Part shown: one piece after another, positions 3,687 to 52,837 of the stretch | Position numbering within the stretch: the first letter of the stretch is position 1 | How the letters are laid out: each line of letters starts with the position of its first letter | Source of the DNA: an uncultured delta proteobacterium | GTDB taxonomy: Bacteria; Desulfobacterota; Desulfarculia; JACQYL01; CAWGVV01 | DNA: 64,000 nt | Assembly: GCA_963826125.1 (NCBI GenBank) | Contig: CAWGVV010000001.1 | Coordinates: forward strand, 1,232,635-1,296,634 | Reading direction: 5' to 3' | The notes under the pieces: generated by a model | The model's input: only the letters and a program-made list of their open reading frames with translations | Told to the model about the DNA's origin: nothing | The model's database searches: none | Translations under genes and position numbers: made by a program

Positions 3687-3707
3687 GTTCTCGTTCGTGC
3701 GGTGAGA

Positions 3708-3751
3708 CATCTTCCCTCCCCCGGCCCCTCCTCCGAGCGGGAGGGGAGATG
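3708..3751 (+). terminator. Long imperfect GC-rich palindrome downstream of the FGGY kinase (terminator- or REP-like hairpin, no U-tract)
   Basis: Left arm CATCTTCCCTCCC, 18-nt spacer, right arm GGGAGGGGAGATG, giving a 13-bp stem with one mismatch about 20 nt after the stop at 3686. Confidence 0.3.
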
Positions 3752-3939
3752 TTAATACCCATTGGAAAGAGAAGCAGTATAGATTCCTCCCCCGAAGGTG
3801 TCTAAAACTTCCTGAAGCCCCCCTTTCCAAAGGGGGACTTTATTGTCCGGTTTCATTCCACTGCCGTTACGGAGTGGGAGCGCCGGGTTTCCATGCGAGC
3901 TTTAATGCCTGCCGAGGGCGGGTCAGGGTGGGGACAACT

Positions 3940-4680: not shown

Positions 4681-4743
4681 GACTGCATCCACAGCCGCTG
4701 TCTTCCCGAGATTTCTCCGTCGCTTCGCGCAGAAAATCCCCTC

Positions 4744-12719: not shown

Positions 12720-12740
12720 AGCTTCTCTTCCCCGCCCGGG

Positions 12741-12962
12741 TCACTCCACTTCGAGGACAACCATGGGCGTGTTGACTTCCATCTCATCCCATTCCTTCAC
12801 CAGGATGGACTTCACGGTGCCGTCGTACTCGGAGACGACGGACAGTTCGTTCTTCATGCAGTTGATTACCGCCACTTCCTGGCCTTTTTTCACGCTGTCG
12901 CCCTCATTCACCACGACGCGGGCCACGAGTCCCGGCATATGGGCGTTTACGTTTGCTTCCAT
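12741..12962 (-). CDS. Minimal biotinyl-carrier domain protein (73 aa; BCCP-like, no linker or N-domain)
   Basis: Biotin/lipoyl attachment fold with a Met-Lys hot spot (VINCMKNE). A GGAGG RBS lies 8 nt upstream of the MEANV start. The longer MKEV start in the track would overlap the RBS. Confidence 0.7.
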   Translation of the reverse strand: MEANVNAHMPGLVARVVVNEGDSVKKGQEVAVINCMKNELSVVSEYDGTVKSILVKEWDEMEVNTPMVVLEVE

Positions 12963-13024
12963 GGTAGAAACCTCCTTCAAAACGAACGATGCGTTGGAAT
13001 AGTCGTTTTCCGGTCAACCGATGT

Positions 13025-14008
13025 TCAGGCCAGCGAATCGGGAGTCAACAACGCTTTCTGTTCCTTGCGCGCCGCGACCGCTTCTTCCTGCGAGCTGAGC
13101 GTGAACTTGATGAAATCCCGCGACGGGATACCCTGGCCGATTTTCCACAGGTCGGCGTTGATGACGTTCAGCGCGCACATGTAGCCGCCGAGCGTCGGGC
13201 CGTCCGCGATGAGCAGGATCGGCGTGTTGCCGCAGATGTTGAGCGCACCTCGGATGGCGTATCCGTGGTCGATGATGTTCGAGGGATGGCTCCCCCCTAC
13301 CCCGCCGTCTGTCCGGGAAAAGAAGAAGTCGGGCAGAGCGTCCAGCCGATAGGCGGAACGATTGGAGGTATGCTGAACCTTGAAGGAATTGGTGAACAGA
13401 TAGTTCATTCCCTCTTCGGTGGCGTAGTCCGGGGAGCAGTTGGGGCCAATTATGGCCCGCAGCGTCCATTCCTTGGCATAGGAAGGCACCACGCCCGGTT
13501 TGACCTTCCGGCCGGCAAGGGACGAAAGCGACGCGGAAGGGGCGCCGAACGGAACGACGTCGTCCTTCATGAGCTTTCGCCCTTCAAACCCGCCGTAGCT
13601 GCCGAAGATGCAGGTGGACTTGCTGTGCAGATAGGGGGGCACGTCGATTCCCCCGGCCACGCCGAGATAGCTCCGGAAACCGTTGGGGCCGATGTGGGAA
13701 AACTTGATCACGTCGCCCTTGGAGGCCTTTACCGATTCCCACAGGGGCATGGATTGCCCGTTCAGGGCCGGTTTCATGTCCGTACCGGTAACGGCGATGA
13801 CGCAATCGACGCCGAACTCCGCCTCGAAAAAGCCGCCGGTGATCTCCAGTCCGGCTTCGCCCGGGGCATTGCCCACCAGGAGGTTGGCGAACCCCAGGGC
13901 CACGTTGTCGAACGCTCCGGAAGGTCCCATGCCTTTGCCCAGGTATCCGAGCCTGCCGGGCCAATCCTCCACCAGCGTTTCAATCCCTCCGTTTATCACC
14001 CGTAACAT
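13025..14008 (-). CDS. pxpC: KipA / PxpC-like (allophanate-hydrolase subunit 2 family, carboxyltransferase-like)
   Basis: Start MLRVINGGIETLVEDWPGRLGY... after trimming 60 aa of the track's N-terminal extension. This is the AHS2 / CT_C_D family. 327 aa. Confidence 0.85.
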   Translation of the reverse strand: MLRVINGGIETLVEDWPGRLGYLGKGMGPSGAFDNVALGFANLLVGNAPGEAGLEITGGFFEAEFGVDCVIAVTGTDMKPALNGQSMPLWESVKASKGDVIKFSHIGPNGFRSYLGVAGGIDVPPYLHSKSTCIFGSYGGFEGRKLMKDDVVPFGAPSASLSSLAGRKVKPGVVPSYAKEWTLRAIIGPNCSPDYATEEGMNYLFTNSFKVQHTSNRSAYRLDALPDFFFSRTDGGVGGSHPSNIIDHGYAIRGALNICGNTPILLIADGPTLGGYMCALNVINADLWKIGQGIPSRDFIKFTLSSQEEAVAARKEQKALLTPDSLA

Positions 14009-14030
14009 GGTGTCCCGTCCTTTCTTCGGC

Positions 14031-15017
14031 CTACAGCCGAGGCGCCTTTTTGGTGCCTTCCGCCTGTTTTCTCTTGAGTTCCCGCACTTCGCCCTGCACC
14101 TGTTCCGAATTGAGCCATGCGAGGTAGTCCTTGACCACGATCTTTCCCGTCTCGATCCGGTATTCGTAGTCCGTTTCCTTGTGCACATGGTCGTAGATGT
14201 CGAGGACCTCCGCTTCGGTGACTTCGTGGAACTTCACGCGGTCCGCCGGACGGTAGAGGAAGGGTTCCTCCCGGAACATGGGGTGCTTCTGGCTGAACTG
14301 AAACGTGGGGATGGTACGGCCGAACAACTGATACCCGCCGCCCGTGGGCGTAGTGTAGGTGAACACGCAGGGGCCGCCGATTCCTGCCGCGCCTTCGGGC
14401 GTCCAGGTGCGCGGCGGATTGTATTTGGGAACCACGATGGCGCAGCGAGGGTCGACCGGCCACAGAAACGCGCCGCCCGGCCAGAATCCGCCGCCGCTGT
14501 TGAACCATTCCGTGCCCAGGAACATGTCTTTCACCTGCCGGACGGTGACGCCGTTGCACATGGCGATGTACTCGATGTTATACCCGTCGATGACGTTGGG
14601 CGCGTCCGGCCTCACTTCCTTCACGTATTTCGCCACCGCCTTCTTCGTCTCGGAGTCTTCGAAGGCCAAAGGCAGGTGGATGGTGCGCGATTCCAGCACC
14701 ACGTCGTCCACGGTGGGCATGGAGTCTTCCGCGTCCTTTATTTCCGCGATGAGGGTGGAAACGGTCAGCACTTCCGGGTCGAAATGGAACAGGTTGGTGC
14801 GCAGCCCCGGAACCGTTTCGATGAGGCCCTTGATCTTCTTGGCGTGGATGATGTCGTTGACGGCCAGCATCCGGAAGGAATCTTCAAGATGCGCCCGCTG
14901 TTCCCGGCCGTACTCCACCTGCAGGAAGCCGTCGCCCGCCTGCCGGAAGAGCACTTCGAGCCGGGATTCCGTTTCCGGCATGGTGTCCAGTATCACTTGG
15001 TATTTTGTGTCGTTCAT
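14031..15017 (-). CDS. pxpB: KipI / PxpB-like (allophanate-hydrolase subunit 1 family)
   Basis: 328 aa. Cyclophilin-like AHS1 fold features (…IHLPLAFEDSETKKAVAKYV…). Confidence 0.85.
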   Translation of the reverse strand: MNDTKYQVILDTMPETESRLEVLFRQAGDGFLQVEYGREQRAHLEDSFRMLAVNDIIHAKKIKGLIETVPGLRTNLFHFDPEVLTVSTLIAEIKDAEDSMPTVDDVVLESRTIHLPLAFEDSETKKAVAKYVKEVRPDAPNVIDGYNIEYIAMCNGVTVRQVKDMFLGTEWFNSGGGFWPGGAFLWPVDPRCAIVVPKYNPPRTWTPEGAAGIGGPCVFTYTTPTGGGYQLFGRTIPTFQFSQKHPMFREEPFLYRPADRVKFHEVTEAEVLDIYDHVHKETDYEYRIETGKIVVKDYLAWLNSEQVQGEVRELKRKQAEGTKKAPRL

Positions 15018-15086
15018 GGTCGCGTCTCCCGTGTGTCCAAGAGATTGTAGGTCATCGGCCGCTCGACGTCGGAACGTCGATTAAGG

Positions 15087-15839
15087 TCAAAGCGCCGGAG
15101 AACAGAGGGTAATTCCGGCGCCCTCGAGAGTCTCCCTCACGGTGCGGGCGATTACGTCCGACCCCGGAGTGTCCGAATGGAGACTGACCGAATTTCCTTC
15201 GATATCGATGTCGTTGCCTTCCGTGGTGGCCACCTTGTTTTCCTTCACCATGCGCAGCACGCGCCGGCCTACCTGCGCGGGATCGTGCTTTTCATGATGA
15301 CGGGTGATGACCAGTTTTCCCTCTCCGTCGTAGCCGAGGTCCGCATAGACTTCATGGACCGTGCGAATGCCCATGGATTCGGCGATGGGGGCGATGACGC
15401 CCGCCTTCATCACGTAGAGGTACGGCATCGGTTTGATGTCCTTGACCGCTTCGCAGATGGCGCGGGCCACGTCTTCCCGACGGTGAGCCATTCCATAGAG
15501 CGAACCGTGGGGCTTCACGTGATGCAGCTGCATGCCGACCGCCTCCAGGAATGCCTTGAGGGCGCCCGACTGGTAGAGGGTGATGTCGTAAATTTCATCC
15601 ATGGAGAGGTTCATTTCCCGTCGGCCGAACCCCTGCAGATCGGGCAGACCGGGATGGGAACCCACCTGTACGTTGTGTTCCTTGGCCAGCATGACCGTCC
15701 GCTTCATGACGGACGGGTCACCGGCGTGAAATCCGCAGGCCACGTTGGCGCTGGTGATGTATCGCATGAAGGCGGCATCGTCGCCCATGGTGTACATTCC
15801 GAAGCTTTCGCCCATGTCTGCGTTGAGATCGAGTTGCAT
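15087..15839 (-). CDS. pxpA: LamB/YcsF family lactam-utilisation protein (PxpA-like)
   Basis: MQLDLNADMGESFG...ACGFHAGDP...GSHPGLPD are LamB/YcsF motifs. 250 aa. Confidence 0.85.
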   Translation of the reverse strand: MQLDLNADMGESFGMYTMGDDAAFMRYITSANVACGFHAGDPSVMKRTVMLAKEHNVQVGSHPGLPDLQGFGRREMNLSMDEIYDITLYQSGALKAFLEAVGMQLHHVKPHGSLYGMAHRREDVARAICEAVKDIKPMPYLYVMKAGVIAPIAESMGIRTVHEVYADLGYDGEGKLVITRHHEKHDPAQVGRRVLRMVKENKVATTEGNDIDIEGNSVSLHSDTPGSDVIARTVRETLEGAGITLCSPAL

Positions 15840-20331: not shown

Positions 20332-22101
20332 TCAGACCGGAGCGTCCGGCAGGGCGACCCGATATTTACGCAACTTGCGGCTCACGGTCGACTGGTTCAC
20401 CCCCAGACGGCGCGCCGCTTCCCGCTGGGAACCGTACTTCCGCATGGCCTCGATGATGTGCTCCACTTCCACTTGTTCCACGATTTCGGGCAGAGGCTGC
20501 GGCTCCCCGCTCCCCCGCACGGCGGGGTCGAAGGAGACCGTCACTTCCGCCGGGAGATCGCCCGGCACAACGGTGTCCGAGGAACCCATGACCAACATGG
20601 ATTCCACGATGTTCTGCAGCTCCCGGACGTTGCCCGGATAGGAATAGTGCAGCAGGTATTCGAGCGCGTCACGGTCGATACGCTTGTGCAGTTGATGCTT
20701 TTCACCGATCTCCTTCATGAGGAAGGTGATCAGATCGAAGATGTCCTGGGTGCGTTCCCGCAGAGGAGGAATGTGCAGGGGAACCACGTTCAGGCGGTAG
20801 AAGAGGTCCTTGCGGAACATGCCGTTCCGTACCTGTTCCGCGAGGTCCCTGTTGGTGGCGGCGATGACCCGCGTATCCACCTGCCGGACTTCGGAGCCGC
20901 CCACGCGGACAAGCTTCTTTTCATCGAGAAACCGCAGCAGTTTCACCTGCTGGCTGAGCGGCACTTCGGCGATTTCATCCAGAAAAAGCGTGCCTCCGTC
21001 GGCCATTTCGACCAGCCCCACTTTTCCTTTTGGCCCCGCCCCGGTAAACGCGCCCCTTTCGTAGCCGAAAAGTTCCGATTCGAAGAGGGTTTCCACGATG
21101 GCCGCGCAGTCCACCCGGATGAACGGCCCAGCCGTCCGGTCGGATCGGCCGTGGATGAGCTTGGCCAACATGCCCTTGCCCACGCCCGACTCACCCGTCA
21201 GCAGCACCGTCGAATCGAACCGCGCCACCCGCATGGCCTTTTCGTAGACGGTTTCCATCACCTTGCTGCGGGAAATGAAATGGCTCGCCTCCTTTTCCCG
21301 GAGTTTCAGTCCGGAAAGCTCGTACCGGTAGAGGTCCACCAGGGCCTTGCTCTCTTCCAGTTCCGTCCGCATCCTGTCGAGTTCGGTGATGTCGCGGTCG
21401 TTGATGATGATGACGTCGATCTCGCCCTTGGGATTGAAGATGGGGCTGCCTGTGGCCAGTATCTTCTTGTTGGCCTTGGTGGTCTGCACCATCGTGACAG
21501 TGGTTTTCAGCTTCAACACTTCCAGGCTCACTGAGTTGCTGAAATATTTCTCCGCCACCAGATCGGCAACGTTCCGTCCGATGACCTCTTCGGCCACGCA
21601 CCCCGTAATGCGTTCGGCCGCCTTGTTCAACTTCACCACGTTTCCGTGCCGGTCGGTGATCCACAATCCGTCGTAGGAGGACTCCATGATCGCTTCGAGC
21701 AGATCGGCCATCTGCTTGTAGGAGTCCAGTTCCAGCGCCACTTTATCGTAGGAAAACACGCCCTGGAAAAAGGAAACCACCGCAGCCACGGTGCCTTCTA
21801 TTCGCACGGGCAGCCGGCTGGCGATGTAGAGCTTGTTCCGGATGACCGTACGGGCGCCGATCTGGGGAACCCCGTCCTCGAAGACCCTGGTCACGTCCGC
21901 CCATCCCGCTTCGTCAATGACTTCGGCGTGCCGGCCTTCAAGGTCGGTCAGGGGAATATTCAAAAGCCTTGCCGCCGAAGCATTCGCATACGCCACCTGT
22001 CCGGACGGGATGATCAGGGTAACGCCGTCGGGGAGAATGTCCAGGAGGTTACGAGCGGCCGCAAGAAATGTCGATACGCTGGGTGGAAGGGATATGTTCA
22101 T
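20332..22101 (-). CDS. σ54-dependent transcriptional activator (PAS-PAS-AAA+-HTH, NtrC family)
   Basis: GESGVGKGMLA Walker A, the GAFTGA motif (ERGAFTGAGPKG), a C-terminal Fis-type HTH (QREAARRLGVNQSTVSRKLRKY), and two N-terminal PAS domains. The start MNISLPP was chosen after removing a 97-aa low-complexity extension. Confidence 0.85.
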   Translation of the reverse strand: MNISLPPSVSTFLAAARNLLDILPDGVTLIIPSGQVAYANASAARLLNIPLTDLEGRHAEVIDEAGWADVTRVFEDGVPQIGARTVIRNKLYIASRLPVRIEGTVAAVVSFFQGVFSYDKVALELDSYKQMADLLEAIMESSYDGLWITDRHGNVVKLNKAAERITGCVAEEVIGRNVADLVAEKYFSNSVSLEVLKLKTTVTMVQTTKANKKILATGSPIFNPKGEIDVIIINDRDITELDRMRTELEESKALVDLYRYELSGLKLREKEASHFISRSKVMETVYEKAMRVARFDSTVLLTGESGVGKGMLAKLIHGRSDRTAGPFIRVDCAAIVETLFESELFGYERGAFTGAGPKGKVGLVEMADGGTLFLDEIAEVPLSQQVKLLRFLDEKKLVRVGGSEVRQVDTRVIAATNRDLAEQVRNGMFRKDLFYRLNVVPLHIPPLRERTQDIFDLITFLMKEIGEKHQLHKRIDRDALEYLLHYSYPGNVRELQNIVESMLVMGSSDTVVPGDLPAEVTVSFDPAVRGSGEPQPLPEIVEQVEVEHIIEAMRKYGSQREAARRLGVNQSTVSRKLRKYRVALPDAPV

Positions 22102-22313
22102 TGTTTCCGGGATCGGTGAGCGATTGCATCGTGTTGTTTCGTTGGAGGGAACATACCACAGCGGTGCGCGGAACGCAAAAGCTCGTGGAGGGGCTCCTTC
22201 CCTTCCGGGTTTCTTCTTTCCCGGAACGAACGGACGCCCGAGGGGGCGTCGGGGAGTTCTTCTCCGCCCTACCCGCCGCAGGCAGAGGAACAGCGTTCCC
22301 GAAGCGTTCCCCG

Positions 22314-22664
22314 CTAGGAGGTTTCGGTCATCCGGACGTCCTCCACCCTGAAAGGAGTACAGCTCACGCCGATGCTCTTTTTCTTCACCCATATCCTGGC
22401 CATGGTCACCGTATGGCCGTCATGATTGACCAGGCTGGGGAGCTTTTCCACGTAGCTGATGTCTTTGGCCAGGAATTCGAAGTACGGCGTGCCGGCGCTG
22501 AATGGATCGATGACCAGGATCACCTTCCGCGGATCATGTGGGTGTTTGTGCGGAGACCCGGTGTAGGCGACGTGCGTTTTCCCGATGGTGGCGAAATCCG
22601 TCGGGGCCTCGTACGATTGAATTTCGAATTTCTTCGCTGTCTGCGGAAATTCCTCCCCACTCAT
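22314..22664 (-). CDS. Hypothetical protein (116 aa)
   Basis: MSGEEFPQTAKKFEIQSYEAPTDFATIGKTHVAYTGSPHKHPHDPRKVILVIDPF... GGGAGGA RBS about 8 nt upstream. No recognisable family. Confidence 0.5.
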   Translation of the reverse strand: MSGEEFPQTAKKFEIQSYEAPTDFATIGKTHVAYTGSPHKHPHDPRKVILVIDPFSAGTPYFEFLAKDISYVEKLPSLVNHDGHTVTMARIWVKKKSIGVSCTPFRVEDVRMTETS

Positions 22665-41752: not shown

Positions 41753-42625
41753 ATGAGCTTCCAGAAGCGTTTGGCATCAGGAGAATTCGTTGTCCTCGCC
41801 GAGATGGACGTCCCCAAGGGAGTCGACATCTCTACCCTTGTATCCAATGTACGAAAGGTCAAAGGCCGCGTCGATGCCGTGGTGATTCCCGACATGAGCA
41901 ACGGCGTCATGAAAATGAGCGGTCTGGGAGCCAGTGTGCTGATGCAGCAGCAGGGTGTGGAAGCGGTCATGCAGATGTGCTGCAGGGACCGAAACCGCAT
42001 TGCGCTGCAGGGCGATCTGCTCTCCGCTCACGTTCTCGGTGTTCAGAACATCATTGCGGTGAAGGGCGACGATCTTTCCCAGGGAGATCAGATAGACGCC
42101 AAGCCCGTTGAGGATATCGACGAACTCGGACTCCTGGAAGCCATCCGGTCCATGCAGTCCGGCAAGGATCTCGCCGGTATCGAATTGAGCGGCAGCCCCT
42201 CCTTCACCGTGGGGTGCGTAATGCCTCCGGTCGCGGACGACGCGGCCCTGACGACGGAATTGGACCGCGCAAAAATGAAGATCGACGCGGGAGCGTCTTT
42301 CGTGATCGCTCCCCCGGTGTTCGACGCCGGAGACTTCGACGCTTTCCTCGCCAAGGCGAAGGGGCTCGGCGTACCGGTGATTCCCACCGTCTACCTTTTA
42401 AAGTCCGTGGGCATGGCCCGCTACATGAACACCAATATCCCCGGCATGCACGTGTCTGAAAATATTATTAAACGAATCCGTCAATCTTCGGATCGAGTAC
42501 ATGAGTGTGTGGTGATTGCCGGAGAGACGACAAAGGCGTTGAAAAAACACGCCCAGGGTGTGTATATCGTTACTCTCGGATGGGAATTCCGACTTCCCGC
42601 CATTCTGGACATCGCAGGAATCTGA
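41753..42625 (+). CDS. Methylenetetrahydrofolate reductase-like (MetF paralogue 1)
   Basis: MTHFR TIM-barrel family. AAGGGGGAAC RBS. 290 aa. Confidence 0.75.
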   Translation: MSFQKRLASGEFVVLAEMDVPKGVDISTLVSNVRKVKGRVDAVVIPDMSNGVMKMSGLGASVLMQQQGVEAVMQMCCRDRNRIALQGDLLSAHVLGVQNIIAVKGDDLSQGDQIDAKPVEDIDELGLLEAIRSMQSGKDLAGIELSGSPSFTVGCVMPPVADDAALTTELDRAKMKIDAGASFVIAPPVFDAGDFDAFLAKAKGLGVPVIPTVYLLKSVGMARYMNTNIPGMHVSENIIKRIRQSSDRVHECVVIAGETTKALKKHAQGVYIVTLGWEFRLPAILDIAGI

Positions 42626-42950
42626 ACGGACGTCGCACCATGCGGAACGCGGGGTTTCCCCCCCACGCCGGTGGTGCGGTCGCGTGCCGTCACGGGCATC
42701 GCCGGCGAATCCCTGAACAGCTTTTCCTCCGGTCTGTCTATAGTAAGGATGCGGCTGTTTTTTGTTTGCCTCCCTGCGGAAATGACGAGAGTAACTACGG
42801 CAAAAGCAGTTTGAAGCACGAATACATTCCGTACAATGTGGCGCTTATCGGGAACTGTTGACAAGGACCCTTTCCGGCCGCGTAGCATGGGAAATCCGGA
42901 AAATCCGCCGTCGGTTCCCCCCAACGAAAAGAACAATCAGGTAACTATCC

Positions 42951-45900
42951 ATGGATTTTGAAGAACATTCAGGCAAAGGCAATACGGTTCTGGTTATCGG
43001 AGGCGGCGTCGCCGGCATCAAGGCGTCGCTGGACCTCGCCGAAATGGGCAGAAACGTGGTACTCGTGGACAAGGCTCCGGCCATCGGGGGGCTGATGACC
43101 CTTTTGGACAGGACCTTCCCCACCAACAACTGCGACATGTGCACCATTTCTCCACATCTGGCTGCGAGCAACCGGGAGCTGCAAATCGACCTGCAGACCC
43201 TTTCCCAGGTGGAAAAGGTGGACGGAGAGGCGGGGAACTTCACCGTTACGGTGAAGACCAGTCCGCGCTACATCGATCTCGAAACGTGTACCGCTTGCGG
43301 CGACTGCCATAAACAGTTTCCCGAATGCGTGAGTTTCACTCCGGGGCTGGACGCCCGCGCTCCCACCTGCATGCGGTATCCGCAGGCTACCCCCTATGCC
43401 TTTTCCATCGACAAGGAGAAAGTGACCGATCCCGAGGCCCTCACCAAGGTGTGCCCGTTCGGTGCCATCAATCTCGAACAGGTCGAAACGGTGCGGGACA
43501 TCGAAGTCGGTTCCGTGATCGTGGCCGGGGGCGCTACGCTCTTCGATGCGGACCGGTTGCACAATTACGGCCATGCCGAGTATCCGAACGTCGTGACCGG
43601 GCTCGAGTACGAACGGATCATGTCCGCGTCCGGCCCCACGGGGGGATCGCTGGTCCGTCCGTCCGACAACAAACAACCGCAGAAGATCGCCTGGATCCAG
43701 TGCGCCGGTTCCCGCAACACCGGGAAGGACACCCTGCCCTACTGTTCGAGCGCGTGCTGCATGTACGCCCTCAAGGAAGCCATGGTCACCAAGGAGCGCT
43801 TCCAGAACGACATCGAAACCGTGATCTTCTACATGGATATGAGGACCTTCGGCAAGGATTACGAACTCTACCTGCAACGGGCCAAGGACGATTTCCACGT
43901 CCGGTTGGTGCGCAGTCGTCCCCATACGGTCGAACAGCACGCCGACAGCGGCGATCTTACCATCGCGTACACGCTGGACGGGTCCAGCAAGCCGGTGGTG
44001 GAGACGTTCGACATGGTGGTACTCTCCACCGGGTTTTGTACCACGCCCGAATTTGTCGACCTTTCCAAAAAGCTGGGGATCGAACTCAATAAATACAACT
44101 TCGTGCAGACCACGAGCTTTGAGCCCGTGGCGTCCTCCAAGAAGGGCGTCTACGTCTGCGGCCTGGTGGAAGCTCCCAAGGACATCCCGGAAACCATTGT
44201 CCAAGCCAGCGCTGCCGCGGCCAAGGCGGTCGGCCATCTAGCCGGCATCGGGGAAAAAGTGCAGCCGAGGGAAGAATTCCCGCCGGAACGCGACGTCACC
44301 GGCGAGGACCCGCGCATCGGCGTATTCCTCTGCGATTGTGGTTACAACATCGGCGGCGTCATCGACGTGAACGCGGTCAACGAGTACGCCGGTATTCTGC
44401 CCAATGTTGCGGTGGCCGAAATGGTGGGACACGGGTGCAGCATCGACGCCATGGAGCACATCCAGCAGACCATCCTGGACAAGAAACTCAACCGGGTGGT
44501 CATGGCGGCCTGTTCCCCGCGCACCCACGAGATGAAGTTTCAGGACATGATCCGCAATGTTGGGCTCAATAAATATCTGGTCGAAATGGCCAACCTGCGC
44601 GACCAGGACACCTGGGTGCATCAGAACGATCCCAAGGCAGCCACGGACAAAGCCAAGGACCTCGTCCGCATGGCGGTTGCCGGTTCCATGATGGCCCATC
44701 CGCTGCCGGACAACACGCTGCCCATGAACAAGAACATCCTGGTGGTCGGCGGCGGCGTCGCGGGCATGAACGCGGCCCTCAGCCTGGGCGACCGGGGGTA
44801 CAAGGTGCACTTGGTGGAACGGTCCAGGGAACTGGGCGGCTTGGCCAGGCTCATCCACAAGACCATCCAGGGCGAAAACGTTCCGGAATACGTATCCGCA
44901 CTCGTTGAACGGGTGAAGTCCAACGAGAACATAGAAGTCGTCACCAACGCGGTGGTGGTGGATCACACGGGTATCCCCGGCCGGTTCAGGACGGGCCTCC
45001 AGATCGGCCCCCAGATGTACTACCGGCAGATCGATCACGGCGTAACCATTCTGGCCACGGGCGCCATGCCCAACAGGCCGTCGGAATACCTCCTGGGACA
45101 GCACGGCGCGGTCATGAACCAGCTCGACCTCGACGGACTGCTCGAAGACGATGCGGAGAAGATCAAAAGCTGGCAGAACGTCGTCATGGTCCAGTGCGTG
45201 GGTTCCCGTGTACCGGAAAACCCCAATTGTTCGCGCATCTGCTGCCAGTCGGCAGTCAAGAATGCTTTGCGCATCAAGGCGCTCAATCCCGACGCCCAGA
45301 TTTTCATCCTCTATCGCGACATGCGTACCTACGGTTTCCTGGAGGATTACTACCGGGAAGCGCGGGAAAAGGGCGTCGTGTTCGTGCGCTACAGCACGGA
45401 CGCCAAACCGACGGTTGAACCCGACGGCAACGGGTTGTCGGTGATGTTCCGCGAACCCCTGCTGGACCGCGACATTCAGGTTGCCGCGGACGCTTTGGTG
45501 CTAAGCACCGGATTCGTGGCCGACGATGAAATGACCGAAGACCTGGCGGCGATTTTCCGCCTGCCCCGCACCCTGGACGGCTACTTCCTGGAAGACCACG
45601 TGAAGCTGCGTCCGGTTGACGTTTCCGTTCCCGGCTTCTTCATCGCCGGTACGGCTCACGCTCCCAAGTCCATCCGGGAGAGCATCTCCCAGGGACTGGC
45701 TACCGCGGCCCGAGCCCAGACCCTGCTCAACAAGGACGTCATCAATCTCGGCTCCGTGGTGGCGCGGGTGGACGGCAACAAGTGCGCGGCGTGCCTGATA
45801 TGCGTAAGGGCCTGTCCATTCGACGTACCCTTCATCAACGCGGACGGCTATTCGGAAATCGACCCGTCGGAATGTCGGGGCTGCGGCATCTGCGCGGCGG

Positions 45901-45989
45901 AGTGTCCGGCCAAGGCCATTCAGCTCCTGCAGTTTGAAGACGACAAAATCATGGCCAAACTCGAAGGACTTCTGGAAGGAATACTCTGA
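42951..45989 (+). CDS. hdrA: HdrA-like flavoprotein (heterodisulfide-reductase subunit A family), unusually long at 1012 aa with two FAD/NAD Rossmann motifs and C-terminal 2x[4Fe-4S] ferredoxin
   Basis: VLVIGGGVAGIKASLDLAEMG at the N-terminus and ILVVGGGVAGMNAALSLGDRG near residue 590. Cys clusters CxGCGxC…; C-terminal CAACLICVRACP…CRGCGICAAECP. Confidence 0.85.
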   Translation: MDFEEHSGKGNTVLVIGGGVAGIKASLDLAEMGRNVVLVDKAPAIGGLMTLLDRTFPTNNCDMCTISPHLAASNRELQIDLQTLSQVEKVDGEAGNFTVTVKTSPRYIDLETCTACGDCHKQFPECVSFTPGLDARAPTCMRYPQATPYAFSIDKEKVTDPEALTKVCPFGAINLEQVETVRDIEVGSVIVAGGATLFDADRLHNYGHAEYPNVVTGLEYERIMSASGPTGGSLVRPSDNKQPQKIAWIQCAGSRNTGKDTLPYCSSACCMYALKEAMVTKERFQNDIETVIFYMDMRTFGKDYELYLQRAKDDFHVRLVRSRPHTVEQHADSGDLTIAYTLDGSSKPVVETFDMVVLSTGFCTTPEFVDLSKKLGIELNKYNFVQTTSFEPVASSKKGVYVCGLVEAPKDIPETIVQASAAAAKAVGHLAGIGEKVQPREEFPPERDVTGEDPRIGVFLCDCGYNIGGVIDVNAVNEYAGILPNVAVAEMVGHGCSIDAMEHIQQTILDKKLNRVVMAACSPRTHEMKFQDMIRNVGLNKYLVEMANLRDQDTWVHQNDPKAATDKAKDLVRMAVAGSMMAHPLPDNTLPMNKNILVVGGGVAGMNAALSLGDRGYKVHLVERSRELGGLARLIHKTIQGENVPEYVSALVERVKSNENIEVVTNAVVVDHTGIPGRFRTGLQIGPQMYYRQIDHGVTILATGAMPNRPSEYLLGQHGAVMNQLDLDGLLEDDAEKIKSWQNVVMVQCVGSRVPENPNCSRICCQSAVKNALRIKALNPDAQIFILYRDMRTYGFLEDYYREAREKGVVFVRYSTDAKPTVEPDGNGLSVMFREPLLDRDIQVAADALVLSTGFVADDEMTEDLAAIFRLPRTLDGYFLEDHVKLRPVDVSVPGFFIAGTAHAPKSIRESISQGLATAARAQTLLNKDVINLGSVVARVDGNKCAACLICVRACPFDVPFINADGYSEIDPSECRGCGICAAECPAKAIQLLQFEDDKIMAKLEGLLEGIL

Positions 45990-46432
45990 TGGAACCATTT
46001 GAACCGGTAATCGTGGCCTTTTGCTGCCATTACTGCGCCTATACGGCGGCGGATATGGCGGGCAGTATGAGGCTGTGTTACCCGCCCAACGTCAAGATCA
46101 TCCGTGTGCCCTGCACGGGCAAGGTGGACGCCATCCATATCCTGCGGGCCCTGCAAAAAGGCGCCGACGGCGTTTACGTAGCGGGATGCCTGGAAGGCGA
46201 CTGCCATTTCAAGGACGGCAACCTGCGCGCAAAACGGCGGGTTGAGTATGTCCAAAAAATACTGGACGATATCGGCATCGGAAGCGAGCGTGTGGAGATG
46301 ATCACCATGTCGGCGGGAATGGGACAGCTCTTCGCCGACAGCGCCACCCGTTTTACGGAGAAAATCCGTTTGCTCGGGCCGAATCCGGTCAAGAACTATA
46401 CGGCCCGGCAGGCCACGGTAGCGGTCGGCTAA
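45989..46432 (+). CDS. mvhD: MvhD (F420-non-reducing hydrogenase delta subunit-like [2Fe-2S] electron-transfer protein)
   Basis: VIVAFCCHYCAYTAADMAG…RVPCTGKVD…AGCLEGDCHF. ATGA overlap with the hdrA stop. Confidence 0.85.
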   Translation: MEPFEPVIVAFCCHYCAYTAADMAGSMRLCYPPNVKIIRVPCTGKVDAIHILRALQKGADGVYVAGCLEGDCHFKDGNLRAKRRVEYVQKILDDIGIGSERVEMITMSAGMGQLFADSATRFTEKIRLLGPNPVKNYTARQATVAVG

Positions 46433-46453
46433 CAAGGCGATAAGGAGTCAGCT

Positions 46454-47122
46454 ATGATTACGGCTGTACGAAAACCCATGGAAGAAATCATTGCATACGT
46501 GAAGCCCTACCAGAGGATTCTGCTGGTGGGCTGCAACGAATGCGTAACGGTCTGCGCGGCCGGCGGCAGGAAGGAAGTCGGAATCCTCTCCTCTGCCCTG
46601 CAGATGGCGTTCCTCAAGGAAGGCAAGCGGCTGGAGGTCACGGAACACACGTTGGAACGGCAGTGCGATCCCGAATATGTGGAAGAACTGGTTTCCATGA
46701 TCGATCGCGCGGACGCGGTGGTGTCGATCGCCTGCGGGTGCGGCGTGCAGGAAGTGGCGCGAAGATTCAAGGAGAAGCCGGTGTTCCCCGGAGTCAACAC
46801 GACCTTCATGGGCGCGTCCGAGCGTCAGGGCGTGTGGGCCGAAAGGTGCCAGGGATGCGGAAACTGTCTTCTGGGCGTTACGGGCGGCGTCTGTCCCGTG
46901 GCTCGGTGTTCCAAGCGCATCTTCAACGGCCCCTGCGGAGGCTCCACCAAGGGCAAGTGTGAGGTAAGCCCGGACATCGACTGCGCATGGCAGCTGATCT
47001 GGGACCGGATGGTAGCCCTGAACATGGTGGACACGTACGAAAACATCGTCGAAGCCAGAGACTGGAGAACCAGTCGTGACGGCGGACCGAGAAAAATCAT
47101 CAGAGAGGACTTAGCACAGTGA
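46454..47122 (+). CDS. metV: MetV (Cys-rich small subunit of MetVF methylene-THF reductase)
   Basis: Cys-rich (CNEC…C, CGCG, CQGCGNC, CPVARC, CGGSTKGKC). AAGGAG RBS. 222 aa. Confidence 0.75.
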   Translation: MITAVRKPMEEIIAYVKPYQRILLVGCNECVTVCAAGGRKEVGILSSALQMAFLKEGKRLEVTEHTLERQCDPEYVEELVSMIDRADAVVSIACGCGVQEVARRFKEKPVFPGVNTTFMGASERQGVWAERCQGCGNCLLGVTGGVCPVARCSKRIFNGPCGGSTKGKCEVSPDIDCAWQLIWDRMVALNMVDTYENIVEARDWRTSRDGGPRKIIREDLAQ

Positions 47123-48042
47123 AAACGGATAGCATTCTCGAAAAAGTGTTGGAGTCGGGTCAACTCGCGGTGACATCTGAGTGCGGGCCTCCACGGGGAT
47201 GCGACCCGGAGAAGGTGAAGAAAAAGGCCGAGATGCTCCGTGGAGTCGTGGACGCCGTCAACGTCACGGACAACCAGACCGCGGTGGTGCGTATGTCGAG
47301 CGTGTCGGCATGCATCATCCTGCAGCAGATGGGGTTGCACCCGGTGCTGCAGATGGTGACCCGTGACCGGAACAGAATCGCCATGCAGAGCGACATCCTG
47401 GGCGCCTACTCCTTCGGAGTGAATACCATGCTCTGCCTGTCCGGCGACCACCCCACCTTCGGCGACCATCCCAGCGCGGCCAACGTGCACGACCTGGATT
47501 CCATCCAGTTTGTGCAGATGGTGCGCAAGATGAGGGACGAGGGGAAGTTCCAGGGCGGCGACGACATTCTGAATCCCCCGAAGATGTTTATCGGGGCGGC
47601 GGCCAACCCCTTTGCGGACCCGTTCGAACTGCGGGTGGCCCGGCTGGCCAAGAAGATAAAGGCCGGCGCGGACTTCATCCAGACTCAGTGCATTTATAAC
47701 GTTGAAAAGTTCGAAAAATGGATGCAAGGTGTGGAAGATAGGGGTCTTCACGAAAAAGTGCATATTTTCGCCGGTATTACTCCCATGAAATCGGTGGGCA
47801 TGGGGCGGTATATGAAAAACAAGGTACCCGGCATGGACGTCCCCGATGAATTGATCAAACGCATGGCGGGCGTGCCCAAGGAAAAGCAGGCGGCCGAAGG
47901 CATCACCATCGCCGTGGAAACCATCCAGCGCATCAAGGAAATCAAGGGCGTGCACGGGTTCCACATCATGGCGATCGAATGGGAAGAGAAAGTGCCTGAA
48001 ATATTGGAACGTGCGGGCCTGTTGCCCCGGCCGGTTTTCTAG
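47119..48042 (+). CDS. metF: Methylenetetrahydrofolate reductase (MetF paralogue 2)
   Basis: GTG start overlapping the metV stop (GTGA). MTHFR family. 307 aa. Confidence 0.85.
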   Translation: MKTDSILEKVLESGQLAVTSECGPPRGCDPEKVKKKAEMLRGVVDAVNVTDNQTAVVRMSSVSACIILQQMGLHPVLQMVTRDRNRIAMQSDILGAYSFGVNTMLCLSGDHPTFGDHPSAANVHDLDSIQFVQMVRKMRDEGKFQGGDDILNPPKMFIGAAANPFADPFELRVARLAKKIKAGADFIQTQCIYNVEKFEKWMQGVEDRGLHEKVHIFAGITPMKSVGMGRYMKNKVPGMDVPDELIKRMAGVPKEKQAAEGITIAVETIQRIKEIKGVHGFHIMAIEWEEKVPEILERAGLLPRPVF

Positions 48043-48249
48043 GCTTCGACATCTCTGCACGAGAGGATGGGACGCTTTCCGAAGAGTGGAGTGAAAGCTG
48101 TCCCGCCCCTTTTGTTCCGGCATACGTTATCACGTATTGACGGGCGAAGGCACGATCGGATACGGTTGATAGGTCGAACCGAGCGAATGTTTCCCGGAAT
48201 TAAGTCTGATTGTTTCCCAACGGGTTCATGAGGGAAAGGAGACCAACCA

Positions 48250-49265: not shown

Positions 49266-49284
49266 CGAGGTGGAGGGAACGGGT

Positions 49285-49806
49285 ATGTCCATGGAGGTCA
49301 TCGCCGTCTACCGTGAATCGGTCATCAAGACGTACGGGTTTCATATCGTTCCCGACCTCGGCCTGGTCATTCTCTCCTTTCCGCGCAACCGGCTGACCGA
49401 TCGGGGAGAACTCCTCCAAGGCATGGGCTGCAAGGAGGGACTGCATTTCGCCACCCTGCAGATCGAGGAAAACGATACCTTCGTGCTTTCCGTGTGCGCC
49501 CACCTGGAAACGGTGGAACGCCTTGCGGCTCTTGCCGCACGGGACGGCGGGGAACAGTCGATCGACGTGCAGCCGCGGGTGGACCTGCTTTTCTTTCACG
49601 GACCTCATTTTGGAGATCGATACGGCATCGCCGATGCCGCATTCGGCATTCTGGACCGGGAGAATGTCCCGTTGCTGGCGGCGGGATGTTCCGTTTCTTC
49701 CCTCTACATGGTTTTCCCGCACGGACAGGCGCAACGTGCGGCCTCGCTTCTGATGGAGCCATTCTGTGCGCCCGGATCGGATCAAACGGGAACGACCGGC
49801 GGATAG
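49285..49806 (+). CDS. ACT-domain-like small protein (about 173 aa)
   Basis: …LLFFHGPHFGDRYGIADAAFGILDRENVPLLAAGCSVSSLYMVFP… is ACT-like. The start (MSMEV or MEVIAV) is ambiguous. Confidence 0.45.
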   Translation: MSMEVIAVYRESVIKTYGFHIVPDLGLVILSFPRNRLTDRGELLQGMGCKEGLHFATLQIEENDTFVLSVCAHLETVERLAALAARDGGEQSIDVQPRVDLLFFHGPHFGDRYGIADAAFGILDRENVPLLAAGCSVSSLYMVFPHGQAQRAASLLMEPFCAPGSDQTGTTGG

Positions 49807-49819
49807 ACGGAGGAAGAAT

Positions 49820-51337
49820 ATGGCCACAGCGGAAACTGACGCCACGAGCAGCAACACCGATTGGAAAGACAAGGTATTCGACTCGCTTTCCTTCCCCACC
49901 CTTATCCTGCGACCGGACATGAGCATTGTGGCGGCCAACGAGGTGTTCCTGAAAAAATACGACGTCCGCCGGGAAGAGGTGATCGGTAAGAAGTGCCACG
50001 AAATTTTTTACCGGACCTCCCGATCCTGCTCGCCCACCGTCTGCCCCCTGTCCCGTGTGCGATCGACGCGCAAGGGCCACTCCATTCTGAAAAGGCTCGT
50101 GGGGCCGGACAATCAGGAACGGTGGGAGGACAGAGTTTTTTCGCCCATCCTCGACGATGATGGCAATCTGGCGTATATTCTTGAGAGCGTACGGGACATT
50201 ACCCGGCTCAAAACCATGGAAAAGGAGATCGAGGTCACCCGCGGGTTCCTGGAGAAAGTCATTCAGAGTTCCGCCAGTGCCATCATCGCCGCCGACGTCA
50301 AAGGGAAGGTCCTCCTCATGAACCCCGCCGCAGAGGAGCTATTCGGATATTCGGCGGACGAAGCCGTGGGGCGAAACATTGTCGAGTATTTCTACTCGCC
50401 CGGAACGGCCAGAGACATCATGCGAAAAATGAGAAGCGAAGACGGCGGCAAGGGAAAACTTCCCATTACCAAGATGGTGATCATCAACGGGCGCGGAGAA
50501 CACATCCCCGTGGAAATGACCGGTTCCATCATTTACGACGGAGACCGGGAAGTGGCCACCATGGGCATCTACAACGATCTCCGCGAAAAAAATGCGGTGG
50601 AACTCAAGCTGGAAGAAGCCCGCGCCCGCCTCGTGCAATCGGAGAAAATGGCTTCCCTCGGACAGCTCGCCGCCGGGGTGGCCCACGAAATCAACAACCC
50701 CCTGGCGGGCATCGTGCTGTACGCCAACCTCGCCATGGAACAGATGGGCAAGGAGAAGCCACTCTACGAGTACCTGCAATACGTAATCGAGGATGCCAAC
50801 CGCTGCCGTGACATCGTGAAAAACCTCCTGGCATACAGCCGCCAGACCAATCCCGACAAAACCATCATTCACCTCAACGCGCTGCTGGAACAATCCCTGG
50901 CGCTCATTCGCGACCAAGCGCTGCTGCAGAACATCAGGGTCGAAAAATTTCTGGCGGAAGGCATGATGCTGGTAAAGGTGGACACCAACCAGATGGGCCA
51001 AGTGATCATCAATCTGGTGATGAACGCCGTGGACGCAATGAACGGCAGGGGCGTCCTCACCTTCCGGACGTACAGGAACAAGCTCGACCTGCAGGTGTAT
51101 CTCGAAGTAGAAGATACCGGCGGCGGGATACCCCAGGAAAACCTGGTCAAAATTTTCGATCCGTTCTTCACCACCAAGGAGCCCGGCAAAGGCACGGGCC
51201 TGGGCCTCAGCACCTCCTACGGTATCGTGGAGGAAAACGGCGGCCGCATCACGGTGAAGAGCACCGGGCCCGAAGGAACCACTTTTCTCATTACCCTCCC
51301 GCTCTACCAGGTATCCAGCGAACTACCGATCGGGTAG
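49820..51337 (+). CDS. PAS-domain sensor histidine kinase (HisKA + HATPase_c)
   Basis: H-box [17 protein letters not shown]1, G2 boxes (…NAVDAM…DTGGGI…GTGLGLS). GGAGGAAG RBS. 505 aa. Confidence 0.85.
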
Positions 51338-51364
51338 GGGGTATTACGGCTTAAGGATTCGACA

Positions 51365-52837
51365 ATGGTTGAAAGAACGTCTGGTTCTACCCTGTTCACG
51401 CCCAGAATTCTCGTTGTGGATGACGAAAAACGCATCCGGGACGGCTGTACCGCCGTACTGGCCGCCGAGGGATACGAAGTAAACGTGGCGGAAAACGGTT
51501 CCCAGGGGCTGGAGATGCTCCTGCGCGAACATTACGACGTGGTGCTCCTGGACCTCATGATGCCCGGCATATCCGGCATGGAGGTGCTGGCCCGGGTCAA
51601 GACGTCGCATCCCGACACCGCCGTCATCGTCATCACCGGTTATGCCACCGTGGAGCATTCCATCGAAGCCATGAAGAAGGGAGCGCTCGACTTCATACCC
51701 AAACCCTTCACCCCGGACCAGCTCAGGGTGGTGGTGGCCAAGGCCATCGAGTACACCCGCACCCTCCAGGACATCGCCACGGAAAAATCCCGATTGCGGG
51801 TGCTGGTGAACCATCTCGCCGACGGAGTCTTGGCGACGGACGCCGAAAAGAACGTCATTCTGGCCAACCCGGCGTTCGTGAAAATGGTGGGCCAGGAGAA
51901 GGAACGCATCATCGGGCATCCGGTGGGAGAGCTGACGGACAACGGAACCGTAATAGCCATGCTGGACGAAGTGCTCCGAATGGACCAAAACGAATTCGTG
52001 ATGCTGAACAGGGAAATCGCTTCCGATGTCGGTGGACCGGAGGAACGGTACCTGAGCGCCCAGTGCCTTCCTTTCCGGGACCGGCAGCAACGGACGCTGG
52101 GCACGGTGACCCTCCTGCACGACATCACGACGCTCAAGCACATGGACCGGCTCAAAAGCGATTTCGTTTCCATGGTGTCGCACGAAATCCGCAGCCCCCT
52201 CAACTCGGTCCTTATGCAATTCAAGGTCGTCCTGGACGGGCTGGCAGGAGAACTGACGGAGAAGCAGAAGGAAATCCTGTCGAGGGTGTCGGATCGCCTT
52301 CAGGGGTTGGTAAACCTGTCCACCGAACTGCTGGACCTGGCCAGGATCGAATCCGGACTCATCACTTCGGAAAAGGAACTCGTCGACCTCGCGGCCATCG
52401 TCCGCGATCAGGCGGACCTGCACCGCGCCGCCGCCGAACAGAAGAACATCACCATCCATGTGCAGGATTTCGGCCCCCTCCCCCCCGTGTTGGCGAATCG
52501 ACAGAACATGGAGGAGGTCTTTTCCAACCTCATCAGCAACGCGGTGAAGTACTCTCCCGAAGGAGCGGGCGTGACCCTGTCGGCCGAACGCAACGAGGAT
52601 TATCTGTGCATCCGCGTCCGGGACACGGGGTTCGGCATCCCCCGGGAAGAACTCCCGCGCGTCTTCGAACGATTCTACCGGGTAAAGAACGAAAAAACGC
52701 GGCACATCGTGGGAACGGGGCTGGGGCTTTCCATCGTCAAGTCCATCCTGGACGCACACAACGGCAGGATAAAGGCGGAAAGCGAAGAAGGCGGCGGGAC
52801 GATTTTTTCGGTGTATCTCCCCGTTGCCGCCCATTGA
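51365..52837 (+). CDS. Hybrid receiver-PAS-histidine kinase
   Basis: RILVVDDEKRIRDG…VVLLDLMMPGISG receiver. H-box VSHEIRSPLNSV. HATPase (…NAVKYSPEG…DTGFGIP…GTGLGLSIV). Confidence 0.85.
   Translation: MVERTSGSTLFTPRILVVDDEKRIRDGCTAVLAAEGYEVNVAENGSQGLEMLLREHYDVVLLDLMMPGISGMEVLARVKTSHPDTAVIVITGYATVEHSIEAMKKGALDFIPKPFTPDQLRVVVAKAIEYTRTLQDIATEKSRLRVLVNHLADGVLATDAEKNVILANPAFVKMVGQEKERIIGHPVGELTDNGTVIAMLDEVLRMDQNEFVMLNREIASDVGGPEERYLSAQCLPFRDRQQRTLGTVTLLHDITTLKHMDRLKSDFVSMVSHEIRSPLNSVLMQFKVVLDGLAGELTEKQKEILSRVSDRLQGLVNLSTELLDLARIESGLITSEKELVDLAAIVRDQADLHRAAAEQKNITIHVQDFGPLPPVLANRQNMEEVFSNLISNAVKYSPEGAGVTLSAERNEDYLCIRVRDTGFGIPREELPRVFERFYRVKNEKTRHIVGTGLGLSIVKSILDAHNGRIKAESEEGGGTIFSVYLPVAAH

Follow-up and report, generated by a model that had tools for sequence, protein, structure and literature searches.

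In the genome of an uncultured Desulfobacterota bacterium, a run of five genes, metF1-hdrA-mvhD-metV-metF2, forms a genuine cluster that, as read from its sequence, specifies a methylene-tetrahydrofolate (methylene-THF) reductase wired to a fused double HdrA flavoprotein. The genes lie in a 64-kb stretch of contig CAWGVV010000001.1 (assembly GCA_963826125.1, positions 1,232,635 to 1,296,634), referred to below as the window, in whose numbering all coordinates without a locus label are given (Table 1). We consider it probable, though far from settled, that the cluster encodes the core of an Hdr-type methylene-THF reductase, an enzyme class already known from Moorella thermoacetica and Sporomusa ovata and represented here by its Desulfobacterota form, with a role in electron bifurcation that is assigned by analogy with the methanogen structure. 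A specialist will recognize the enzyme class at once, and the fused HdrA is not new; the cluster represents a variant, so far little studied, of an enzyme type already known, in which an extra, divergent MetF is found where the HdrBC genes usually sit. Which electron partner methylene-THF reductase uses has long been a missing piece in the bioenergetics of the Wood-Ljungdahl pathway, and the same goes for whether the step conserves energy: the second acceptor of the Moorella enzyme is still unidentified (PMC5861303), and the Sporomusa enzyme showed no bifurcation in vitro (PMC9430772). The present cluster is a compact form of this enzyme class without HdrBC in cis.

Five open reading frames (ORFs) on the plus strand had been called in a preliminary description of the window, and ORF reading together with Pfam recovered all of them at the same positions. 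By homology, MetV and MetF2 are the catalytic pair that interconverts methylene-THF and methyl-THF; MetV has the NGPCGG motif (as defined in PMC8515935). The arrangement was compared with loci from species-representative genomes (54), from metagenomes (47) and from one annotated 4.8-Mb contig, labelled L001 and so on, onto which the window proteins were mapped by tblastn. Taking an identity of at least 57% to the window protein as the mark of an orthologous HdrA, 48 loci carry one. The order metF1-hdrA-mvhD-metV-metF2 is kept across genomes and metagenomes: metF1 is directly upstream of hdrA in 38 of the 40 orthogroup loci with enough upstream sequence, and the complete hdrA-mvhD-metV-metF2 set is present in 37 loci. 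Named hosts belong to the Desulfobacteraceae, Desulfococcaceae, Desulfobulbaceae and Syntrophobacteraceae or are metagenome-assembled genomes labelled ‘Deltaproteobacteria’ or Thermodesulfobacteriota. Median identities to the window proteins are 80% for MetF2, 77.5% for MetV, 77% for MvhD, 67% for the receiver protein encoded downstream, 65% for HdrA and 58.5% for MetF1; MvhD is 68–82% identical across 43 related loci, MetV is 72–84% identical in relatives, and MetF1 has more than 4300 relatives at E ≤ 1e-10. The cluster is very common in bacteria of the sulfate-reducer type and extremely abundant in environmental Desulfobacterota.

The long HdrA carries Pfam domains of the FAD/pyridine-nucleotide-disulfide oxidoreductase and 4Fe-4S dicluster types. 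Its nearest NCBIfam models, HdrA2 and HdrA, match in three separate stretches at 636–850 bits, under the equivalog cut-offs of 1100–1400, and its alignment to the solved methanogen HdrA chains (8RVU and 5ODC) is likewise in three pieces. Residues 11–377 align with the thioredoxin reductase-like (TrxR) domain including the inserted ferredoxin (Fd) domain, residues 446–624 with the HdrA N-terminal domain and the beginning of the TrxR domain, and residues 829–1008 with the end of the TrxR domain together with the C-terminal ferredoxin domain. As aligned, the order is [TrxR1 + inserted Fd-like]–[N-domain–TrxR2–C-terminal Fd]. Domain parsing, suggested in the preliminary description, resolved two homologous TrxR-like halves, 33% identical over the C-terminal part of the TrxR fold and the FAD motif, with the inserted domain in half 1. 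Two GxGxxG motifs and a C-terminal 2x[4Fe-4S] ferredoxin had been reported from inspection, and both are found, as GGGVAG at residues 17 and 600 and as two CxxCxxCxxxC motifs at 945–985.

The distribution of cofactor ligands over the two halves is uneven. Half 1 has the Cys197-type ligand motif, FPTNNCDMC (C61 and C64), which is missing from half 2, and E221 and K275, the equivalents of the E356/K409 bifurcating signature; half 2 has Asp in place of the Glu and retains the Lys as K770. By alignment, the Glu/Lys signature of the bifurcating flavin is found in half 1 only. Each TrxR domain has a four-Cys cluster motif (C251/C265/C269/C270 and C749/C760/C764/C765, respectively). In the inserted ferredoxin-like domain of half 1, C113, C116, C119 and C168 are invariant and the second CxxCxxC of methanogen HdrA is absent; the domain also holds C140 (invariant) and C126 (15 of 18 orthologues). 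Half 2 has a gap of about 80 aa at the corresponding site. The N-terminal cluster domain (C461, C463, C496 and C521) goes with half 2 and has no counterpart in half 1; the C-terminal ferredoxin domain with its eight Cys is likewise found with half 2 only. All 29 cofactor-type cysteines are invariant across 18 orthologues. The elements of a methanogen-type HdrA are all present, split over two fused units and with one complete cluster motif in the inserted domain, and homology shows the protein to be a single-chain pseudo-heterodimer of two HdrA units.

A closely similar picture has been published. In the HdrA of Hdr-type enzymes, an extra TrxR-like domain was described to come first, and an MvhD-like domain, a TrxR domain that lacks the ferredoxin insertion and, at the C-terminus, a ferredoxin domain to follow it; of the two TrxR domains in the 942-aa HdrA of S. 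ovata, the N-terminal one alone has the E160/K216 signature (PMC9430772). Cys197 in one half and the N-terminal domain in the other were reported for fused HdrA, which was read as its own heterodimeric partner, with the MetFV-associated HdrA of Moorella explicitly included (Chadwick et al., PMC9012536). The extra length of HdrA, remarked upon at the outset, is accordingly genuine but not unusual: a fused double HdrA, of 942 aa in S. ovata and 1487 aa in Moorella, is typical of Hdr-type methylene-THF reductases.

By homology with the methanogen complex, the fused HdrA would hold exactly one complete bifurcation unit, built around FAD1, in which half 1 would supply the Cys197-type ligand, the inserted ferredoxin-like domain with its single cluster and the sole flavin with the Glu/Lys signature. 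A low-potential branch may reach ferredoxin by way of the N-domain cluster, which C61 or C64 would complete, and then the inserted domain. A higher-potential branch would leave from the TrxR-domain cluster and would here run to MetV and then MetF2 in place of HdrC and HdrB; MetVF is proposed for this position because MetV and MetF2 are the only iron-sulfur (FeS)/flavin pair in the operon that could serve the branch. The reaction would be reversible, operating as methyl-THF oxidation in acetyl-CoA-oxidizing sulfate reducers or syntrophs, or as methylene-THF reduction in autotrophy. A third, mid-potential donor or acceptor would be needed, and candidates are FAD2 of half 2, MetF1 and a module of QmoC/HdrB type from another part of the genome.

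Several observations favour this reading as an Hdr-type enzyme. A MetVF core (adjacent metV and metF2), mvhD and an hdrA with two TrxR-like FAD domains are found together, the five-gene order that begins with metF1 is conserved in 38 of 40 informative loci, and stop and start codons overlap. The domain assignments of the five proteins, the piecewise match of the long HdrA to solved chains, its internal duplication and the lack of hdrBC in the window speak for it as well. Cys sets for six clusters are invariant in the 18 orthologues, the contrast of E221/K275 with Asp/K770 matches the S. ovata pattern (PMC9430772), and the split of Cys197 and the N-terminal domain is that of fused HdrA (PMC9012536). 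Other observations weigh against it. The HdrCBA-MvhD module of S. ovata and its MetVF did not purify together, and no bifurcation towards ferredoxin or NAD(P)+ was detected (PMC9430772). The long HdrA has no recognizable NAD(P)H site beyond its two FAD motifs, and one of the three bifurcation partners is for that reason not in the operon. In L016 and L024 the operon of an orthologous hdrA includes a QmoC-like/HdrB-like pair, and in six other loci such a pair lies next to it. Finally, Pfam scans of about 45 proteins detected no other Wood-Ljungdahl genes in the 64-kb window.

Compared with characterized systems, the cluster is most readily set beside S. ovata HdrCBA-MvhD-MetVF (Hdr-type or type IV; PMC9430772), with which it shares the MetV-MetF core, MvhD and an HdrA of about 1000 aa with the same domain order and the Glu/Lys signature in the N-terminal TrxR domain only. 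Unlike that system, it is without hdrC and hdrB and has an extra MetF paralogue upstream, and, by comparison with the published description, its first TrxR domain keeps a one-cluster inserted ferredoxin-like domain, so that six rather than five clusters are predicted. The M. thermoacetica MetFV-HdrABC-MvhD enzyme (6S) also has MetFV, MvhD, a fused double HdrA and the split of Cys197 and the N-terminal domain, and was proposed, as relayed in later accounts, to carry out NADH-dependent bifurcating methylene-THF reduction (Mock et al., 2014, via PMC5861303, PMC8515935 and PMC9430772). Its HdrA, however, is 1487 aa with a GltD-type NAD(P)H/FAD/FeS insertion that is not found here, and its operon has hdrBC and no second MetF, the reverse of the present situation. 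Moorella's GltD-fused form does occur in Desulfobacterota: in L025 (9–3635), L028 (8256–12425) and L052 (7918–12105), HdrA is about 1200–1395 aa and begins with a Moorella-like N-terminal Fer4 + Fer4_20 + Pyr_redox_2 module, a GltD/NfnB-like NAD(P)H module. L052 in addition has a second metV-metF pair beside QmoA/QmoB-like genes. With methanogen HdrABC-MvhAGD (5ODC and 8RVU) the cluster has in common MvhD and four recognizable HdrA domain types, and the logic of the electron path can be carried over by homology; it differs in having one fused chain instead of a homodimer, a single bifurcation-type flavin, and no HdrBC, hydrogenase or heterodisulfide chemistry.

Association of MetF(V) with Hdr proteins in the genomes of organisms outside the acetogens is also on record: ‘Ca. 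Syntrophoarchaeum’ has a MetFV-HdrA-MvhD cluster without hdrBC (PMC9012536), and metF is associated with HdrABC in Seep-SRB1g (PMC10553843). The present cluster differs from those reports, as described, in the divergent second MetF upstream of hdrA and in a conserved set of regulatory genes. The published classification of methylene-THF reductase (MTHFR) subunits distinguishes the E. coli type, 2S (MetFV), 3S (with RnfC2), 6S (MetFV-HdrABC-MvhD) and a further X type that has homologues of NuoEFG (PMC8515935), and the form described here is absent from it; judged by its genes, the cluster lacks the hdrBC of the 6S type and shares every other tested feature. We came across neither the metF1-hdrA-mvhD-metV-metF2 arrangement nor the divergent MetF1 in the literature searched, coverage of which was incomplete.

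The absence of hdrB and hdrC, noted earlier for the immediate surroundings of the cluster, extends over the whole window. Among about 45 proteins from a codon-usage-based gene call of the 64 kb, Pfam scans detected no CCG-domain (HdrB), HdrC-type or Flx protein, and tblastn with HdrB-like and QmoC-like queries gave no match from 41 kb upstream to 16 kb downstream of the cluster. Most related loci lack hdrB and hdrC as well. Eight loci, however, have what the window does not, a NarI-type membrane cytochrome b together with a CCG subunit (L016, L024, L018, L098, L022, L008, L054 and L082). Two genes upstream of hdrA in L016 (5190–7769) encode a QmoC-like protein of 564 aa, a NarI-type membrane protein fused to two 4Fe-4S dicluster domains, and an HdrB-like protein of 284 aa with two CCG domains; in L024 (11042–13666) the same pair directly follows metF2. 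These are the only two of the 40 informative orthogroup loci without metF1, and both have the pair inside the operon. In the other six, which are of the metF1 type, the pair is nearby: after the kinase genes and on the same strand in L018 (16963–19037) and L098 (13086–15646), convergent in L022, and divergent upstream in L008, L054 and L082. In this respect the cluster is like QmoABC/DsrMK-type modules, in that related loci pair an orthologous HdrA with QmoC-like and HdrB-like proteins by gene neighbourhood, and unlike them in that no such genes are present in the window.

This raises a real possibility, although one that we rate below the reading of the five genes as a bifurcating core, that the complex is not self-contained and that a QmoC-like protein and an HdrB-like CCG protein, encoded elsewhere in the genome, dock onto the long HdrA. 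Such docking would connect methyl-/methylene-THF redox chemistry either with the menaquinone pool or with a thiol/disulfide carrier, for example DsrC, and the complex would resemble the membrane-associated S. ovata enzyme. Besides the two operons that contain the pair and the six loci that have it in their fetched flanks, the quality of the HdrA match speaks for this: at 59–62% identity to window-type HdrA, against 42–45% to a paralogous group (HdrAL2), the HdrA proteins of L016 and L024 are, on sequence, true orthologues. A search for HdrA residues that discriminate metF1-type from QmoC/HdrB-type operons, meant as a proxy for a changed docking surface, gave no signal, as L016 and L024 keep 322 of 323 metF1-type invariants, and a trans-encoded partner is possible for that reason. 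Moreover, S. ovata HdrCBA-MvhD-MetVF is membrane-associated and quinone-linked (PMC9430772), and hdrABC is often not co-localized with the MetF, MetV and MvhD genes (Poudel et al., PMC6085437). On the other hand, there are no such genes within the 41 kb and 16 kb that flank the cluster here, most metF1-type loci have none in their fetched flanks, including the closest relative (L075, 74% identity, 10-kb flanks), and in L008 a gene for a paralogous HdrA comes after the pair, which may be part of that other system instead. The L008 genes (556–6356, minus strand, divergent from metF1) form an operon of qmoC-like, hdrB-like and a fused hdrA whose product is 45% identical to the window HdrA; this HdrAL2 group of paralogous fused HdrA is also found in L021, L023, L026 and L030. 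Evidently, an orthologous HdrA can work with a membrane QmoC/HdrB-type module, as far as gene content tells, and this genome may encode such a module elsewhere. The preliminary description had proposed a self-contained complex without an HdrBC partner; this is plausible and no more than that, because the QmoC/HdrB pair is found in both metF1-less operons and near six metF1-type loci.

There is an apparent alternation of metF1 and the QmoC/HdrB genes in the operon, which turns attention to MetF1. That the cluster has two MetF paralogues, as first proposed, is borne out: both match Pfam MTHFR (1e-28 and 2e-42), and they are 34% identical. MetF1 scores 100.9 bits against the PF02219 cut-off of 24, with residues 3–286 covered, and only 48–51 bits against NCBIfam MTHFR equivalog models with cut-offs of about 294–310. 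Alignment columns were labelled by Glu28, Asp120 and Gln183 of what we take to be the E. coli sequence, and these landmarks serve as labels only. In MetF2, the three equivalents are invariant in 18 of 18 sequences, as are the motifs TDNQTA, SGDHP and ANPFADP, none of which is found in MetF1. The Gln183 equivalent of MetF1 is Pro in 18 of 18 syntenic orthologues and in 119 of 120 members of a wider family sample. The window copy has Glu at the Glu28 position, where 6 of 18 orthologues (L003, L004, L006, L007, L008 and L009, in the motif LAQMNTPKG) have Gln, as does L052. At the Asp120 equivalent, the window copy has Asp and the others mostly Glu; this column was placed differently in the small and the larger alignment, and directly read motifs were relied upon. 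MetF1-like genes (41–52% identity) also adjoin other Hdr clusters (L035, L042 and L053).

A decaying pseudogene was considered and rejected: all 17 strictly syntenic genome loci encode a MetF1 of 290 aa, and 71 positions are at least 98% conserved across 120 relatives. From these patterns, MetF1 is a conserved, remodelled paralogue tied to HdrA systems, neither an ordinary second reductase nor a pseudogene. Most likely, to judge from the residues, it is an accessory paralogue that has lost the canonical folate-site residues and whose part is that of a structural or asymmetric partner, or else of an extra flavin site. The distinct substrate specificity or assembly role suggested for it at the outset is supported in spirit, by the lack of the MetF2-invariant motifs and the loss of canonical MTHFR residues.

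One intriguing and speculative extension is that the HdrBC (or QmoC/HdrB) arm has been functionally replaced, with MetV-MetF2 as the high-potential arm and MetF1 as the third site, be it an NAD(P)H-type hydride entry or exit or an asymmetric partner. The five subunits would then make up a soluble enzyme, complete in itself, in which methyl-/methylene-THF, ferredoxin and a pyridine nucleotide are coupled reversibly. We regard this as rather unlikely; if true, it would be the long-sought energy-coupling step of the Wood-Ljungdahl pathway's methyl branch in sulfate reducers and syntrophs, and, being self-contained, the simplest system for testing flavin-based bifurcation at the methylene-THF reductase step. 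Three features make the cluster a useful and testable system: the compact form that lacks hdrBC in cis is abundant, MetF1 is remodelled, and metF1 apparently alternates with QmoC/HdrB in the operon. It offers natural comparisons between metF1 operons and QmoC/HdrB operons and between Glu and Gln at the catalytic position of MetF1.

In a more specific version, somewhat less likely still, MetF1 is the missing hydride entry or exit module, having kept the flavin and the pyridine-nucleotide half-reaction of E. coli-type MetF and lost the folate chemistry, so that the five proteins by themselves would constitute a reversible methylene-THF reductase coupled to NAD(P)H and to ferredoxin. The long HdrA is without the GltD-type NADH domain of Moorella HdrA, and MetF1 is the only other flavoprotein-type gene product of the operon. 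In E. coli MetF, the Glu28Gln exchange, which is the one seen in seven of the MetF1 sequences, reportedly abolishes folate reduction and leaves NADH oxidation intact (work of the Matthews laboratory). In energetic terms, the averaged potential of methylene-THF (-200 mV) and ferredoxin is close to that of NADH (-320 mV; potentials from PMC5861303). This version has difficulty with L028 and L052, where a MetF1-like gene precedes a GltD-fused HdrA of about 1390 aa that has its own NAD(P)H module. Nor does the Pro at the Gln183 equivalent throughout the family favour it, since Gln183 of E. coli MetF also contacts NADH, and an NAD(P)H-binding motif in the MTHFR fold is not definable from sequence.

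A role of MetF1 as a housekeeping (anabolic) methylene-THF reductase, independent of the hdrA operon and no more than its neighbour, is quite improbable. The spacer of 325 nt in this genome, the passing of the Pfam MTHFR threshold and the presence of Glu28 and Asp120 equivalents in the window copy would fit such a gene. Yet metF1 keeps its place directly upstream of hdrA in all but two of the 40 loci, with approximate gaps between tblastn hits down to 45 nt and, in L011 and L014, about 10 nt from one ORF to the next, the Gln183-to-Pro exchange is found throughout and Glu28-to-Gln in a subclade, and the scores stay far below the equivalog cut-offs. Least of all is the 1012-aa HdrA an assembly or frameshift fusion of two neighbouring hdrA genes, a worry raised by its two HdrA-like units and rejected with near certainty, because the closest 120 of more than 7700 relatives (E ≤ 1e-50) are about 995–1040 aa long at 63–74% identity in many independent assemblies, the 48 orthogroup loci have the same uninterrupted ORF, and the fused architecture is published for S. 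ovata and Moorella.

Table 1. Coordinates of the cluster genes, of the domains of the long HdrA and of the downstream regulatory genes in the window.
Feature	Position	Strand	Remarks
metF1, divergent MetF paralogue, TIM-barrel MTHFR family	41753..42625	+	290 aa; Pfam MTHFR PF02219 1e-28
metF1-hdrA spacer, 325 nt	42626..42950	+	no Rfam match; no structure signal
hdrA-long, fused double HdrA, 1012 aa	42951..45989	+	predicted 2 FAD + 6 [4Fe-4S]
HdrA half 1 (residues 12-430), TrxR-like FAD domain 1 with inserted ferredoxin-like domain	42984..44240	+	aligns to 144-510 of 5odc
Inserted ferredoxin-like domain (residues 105-185), single complete cluster motif	43263..43505	+	CxxCxxC + C168-Pro
HdrA N-terminal-type (MvhD-like) domain, internal here (residues 446-590)	44286..44720	+	aligns to 2-135 of 5odc, 4-182 of 8rvu
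HdrA half 2 (residues 595-930), TrxR-like FAD domain 2	44733..45740	+	without inserted ferredoxin domain, without Cys197 motif
C-terminal 2x[4Fe-4S] ferredoxin domain (residues 938-1008)	45762..45974	+	Pfam Fer4, Fer4_10, Fer4_21; aligns to HdrA C-terminal ferredoxin domain
mvhD, [2Fe-2S] electron-transfer subunit	45989..46432	+	Pfam FlpD 4.8e-51
metV, FeS subunit of MetVF	46454..47122	+	Pfam DUF5981 / MTHFR C-terminal 3.8e-36; NGPCGG motif
metF2, canonical MetVF-type catalytic subunit	47119..48042	+	Pfam MTHFR 2.1e-42
Stand-alone receiver protein, 128 aa	48250..48636	+	Pfam Response_reg 1.3e-25
Two small soluble ACT-like ORFs, 174 and 178 aa	48741-49265, 49270-49806	+	weak ACT matches
PAS histidine kinase + hybrid receiver-PAS histidine kinase	49766..52837	+	Pfam PAS, HisKA, HATPase_c, Response_reg

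The gene junctions need one correction. The hdrA/mvhD overlap, initially given as ATGA, reads TGATG with an overlap of 1 nt, which leaves the inference of translational coupling unaffected; the GTGA overlap of metV and metF2 was confirmed in the junction sequence. For metF1, an alternative TTG start at 41702 is possible, its orthologues being nevertheless exactly 290 aa. The metF1-hdrA spacer does not fold above the level of shuffled sequences (z = +1.18), promoter- and terminator-like sites in it are at the level expected by chance from shuffles, and an Rfam search of the window between 40 and 50 kb gave no matches. In relatives, the gap between the two genes is 45–367 nt, an approximate figure measured between tblastn hits.

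The cluster is bordered upstream by a divergent short-chain dehydrogenase gene and downstream by the receiver gene, two small ORFs, two PAS histidine kinase genes and ligA. The receiver gene directly follows metF2 in 31 of the 37 loci with a complete set (62–72% identity), the two kinases are syntenic in 28–29 related loci (52–65%) and the ACT-like ORFs in 23–24, with the same receiver/ACT-like/kinase order in about 30 related loci (L001–L015, L056–L075 and others). The ACT-like ORFs have no Pfam matches above threshold; matches to ACT, ACT_7 and ACT_9 at E of about 1e-3 recur across orthologues, which have a C-terminal FHGPHFGDRxGIA motif and, in L004, L015, L019 and L020, read through as a single ORF of about 330–360 aa. 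Because none of these regulatory proteins has a DNA-binding output domain and the receiver is about as conserved as HdrA, the set suggests control of the enzyme at the protein level rather than ordinary transcriptional regulation.

A different use of receiver domains is seen in a more distant Desulfobacterales HdrA of about 1149 aa (L042:7998–11447; 32–36% identical to the window HdrA), which has a response-regulator receiver domain embedded at residues 192–299 (Pfam Response_reg, 5e-28) and sits in an hdrL-mvhD-frhB-like-hdrA-hdrC-hdrB cluster. Receiver-fused HdrA is also found in L031, L032, L040, L043, L044, L049, L051 and L055.

Minus-strand ORFs of 288–432 aa that shadow hdrA and metV/metF2 (42969–44237, 44238–45104 and 46825–48123), and others elsewhere in the window, were rejected as genes: their codon-position GC pattern, with a high value at position 1 and a lower one at position 3, is that of non-coding frames, and they arise as artefacts from a GC content of 59%. 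A gene at 830–2047, some 40 kb away from the metF cluster, encodes a protein of the URO-D family (5e-13), which includes corrinoid methyltransferases. Genes on the minus strand at 11361–15839 encode biotin carboxylase, a biotin carrier of 79 aa, a CT_C_D carboxyltransferase-type protein and a LamB/YcsF protein; they resemble an ATP-dependent system of the 5-oxoprolinase or allophanate-hydrolase kind and adjoin an ABC sugar-type transporter and a sigma-54 PAS activator (20332–22392).

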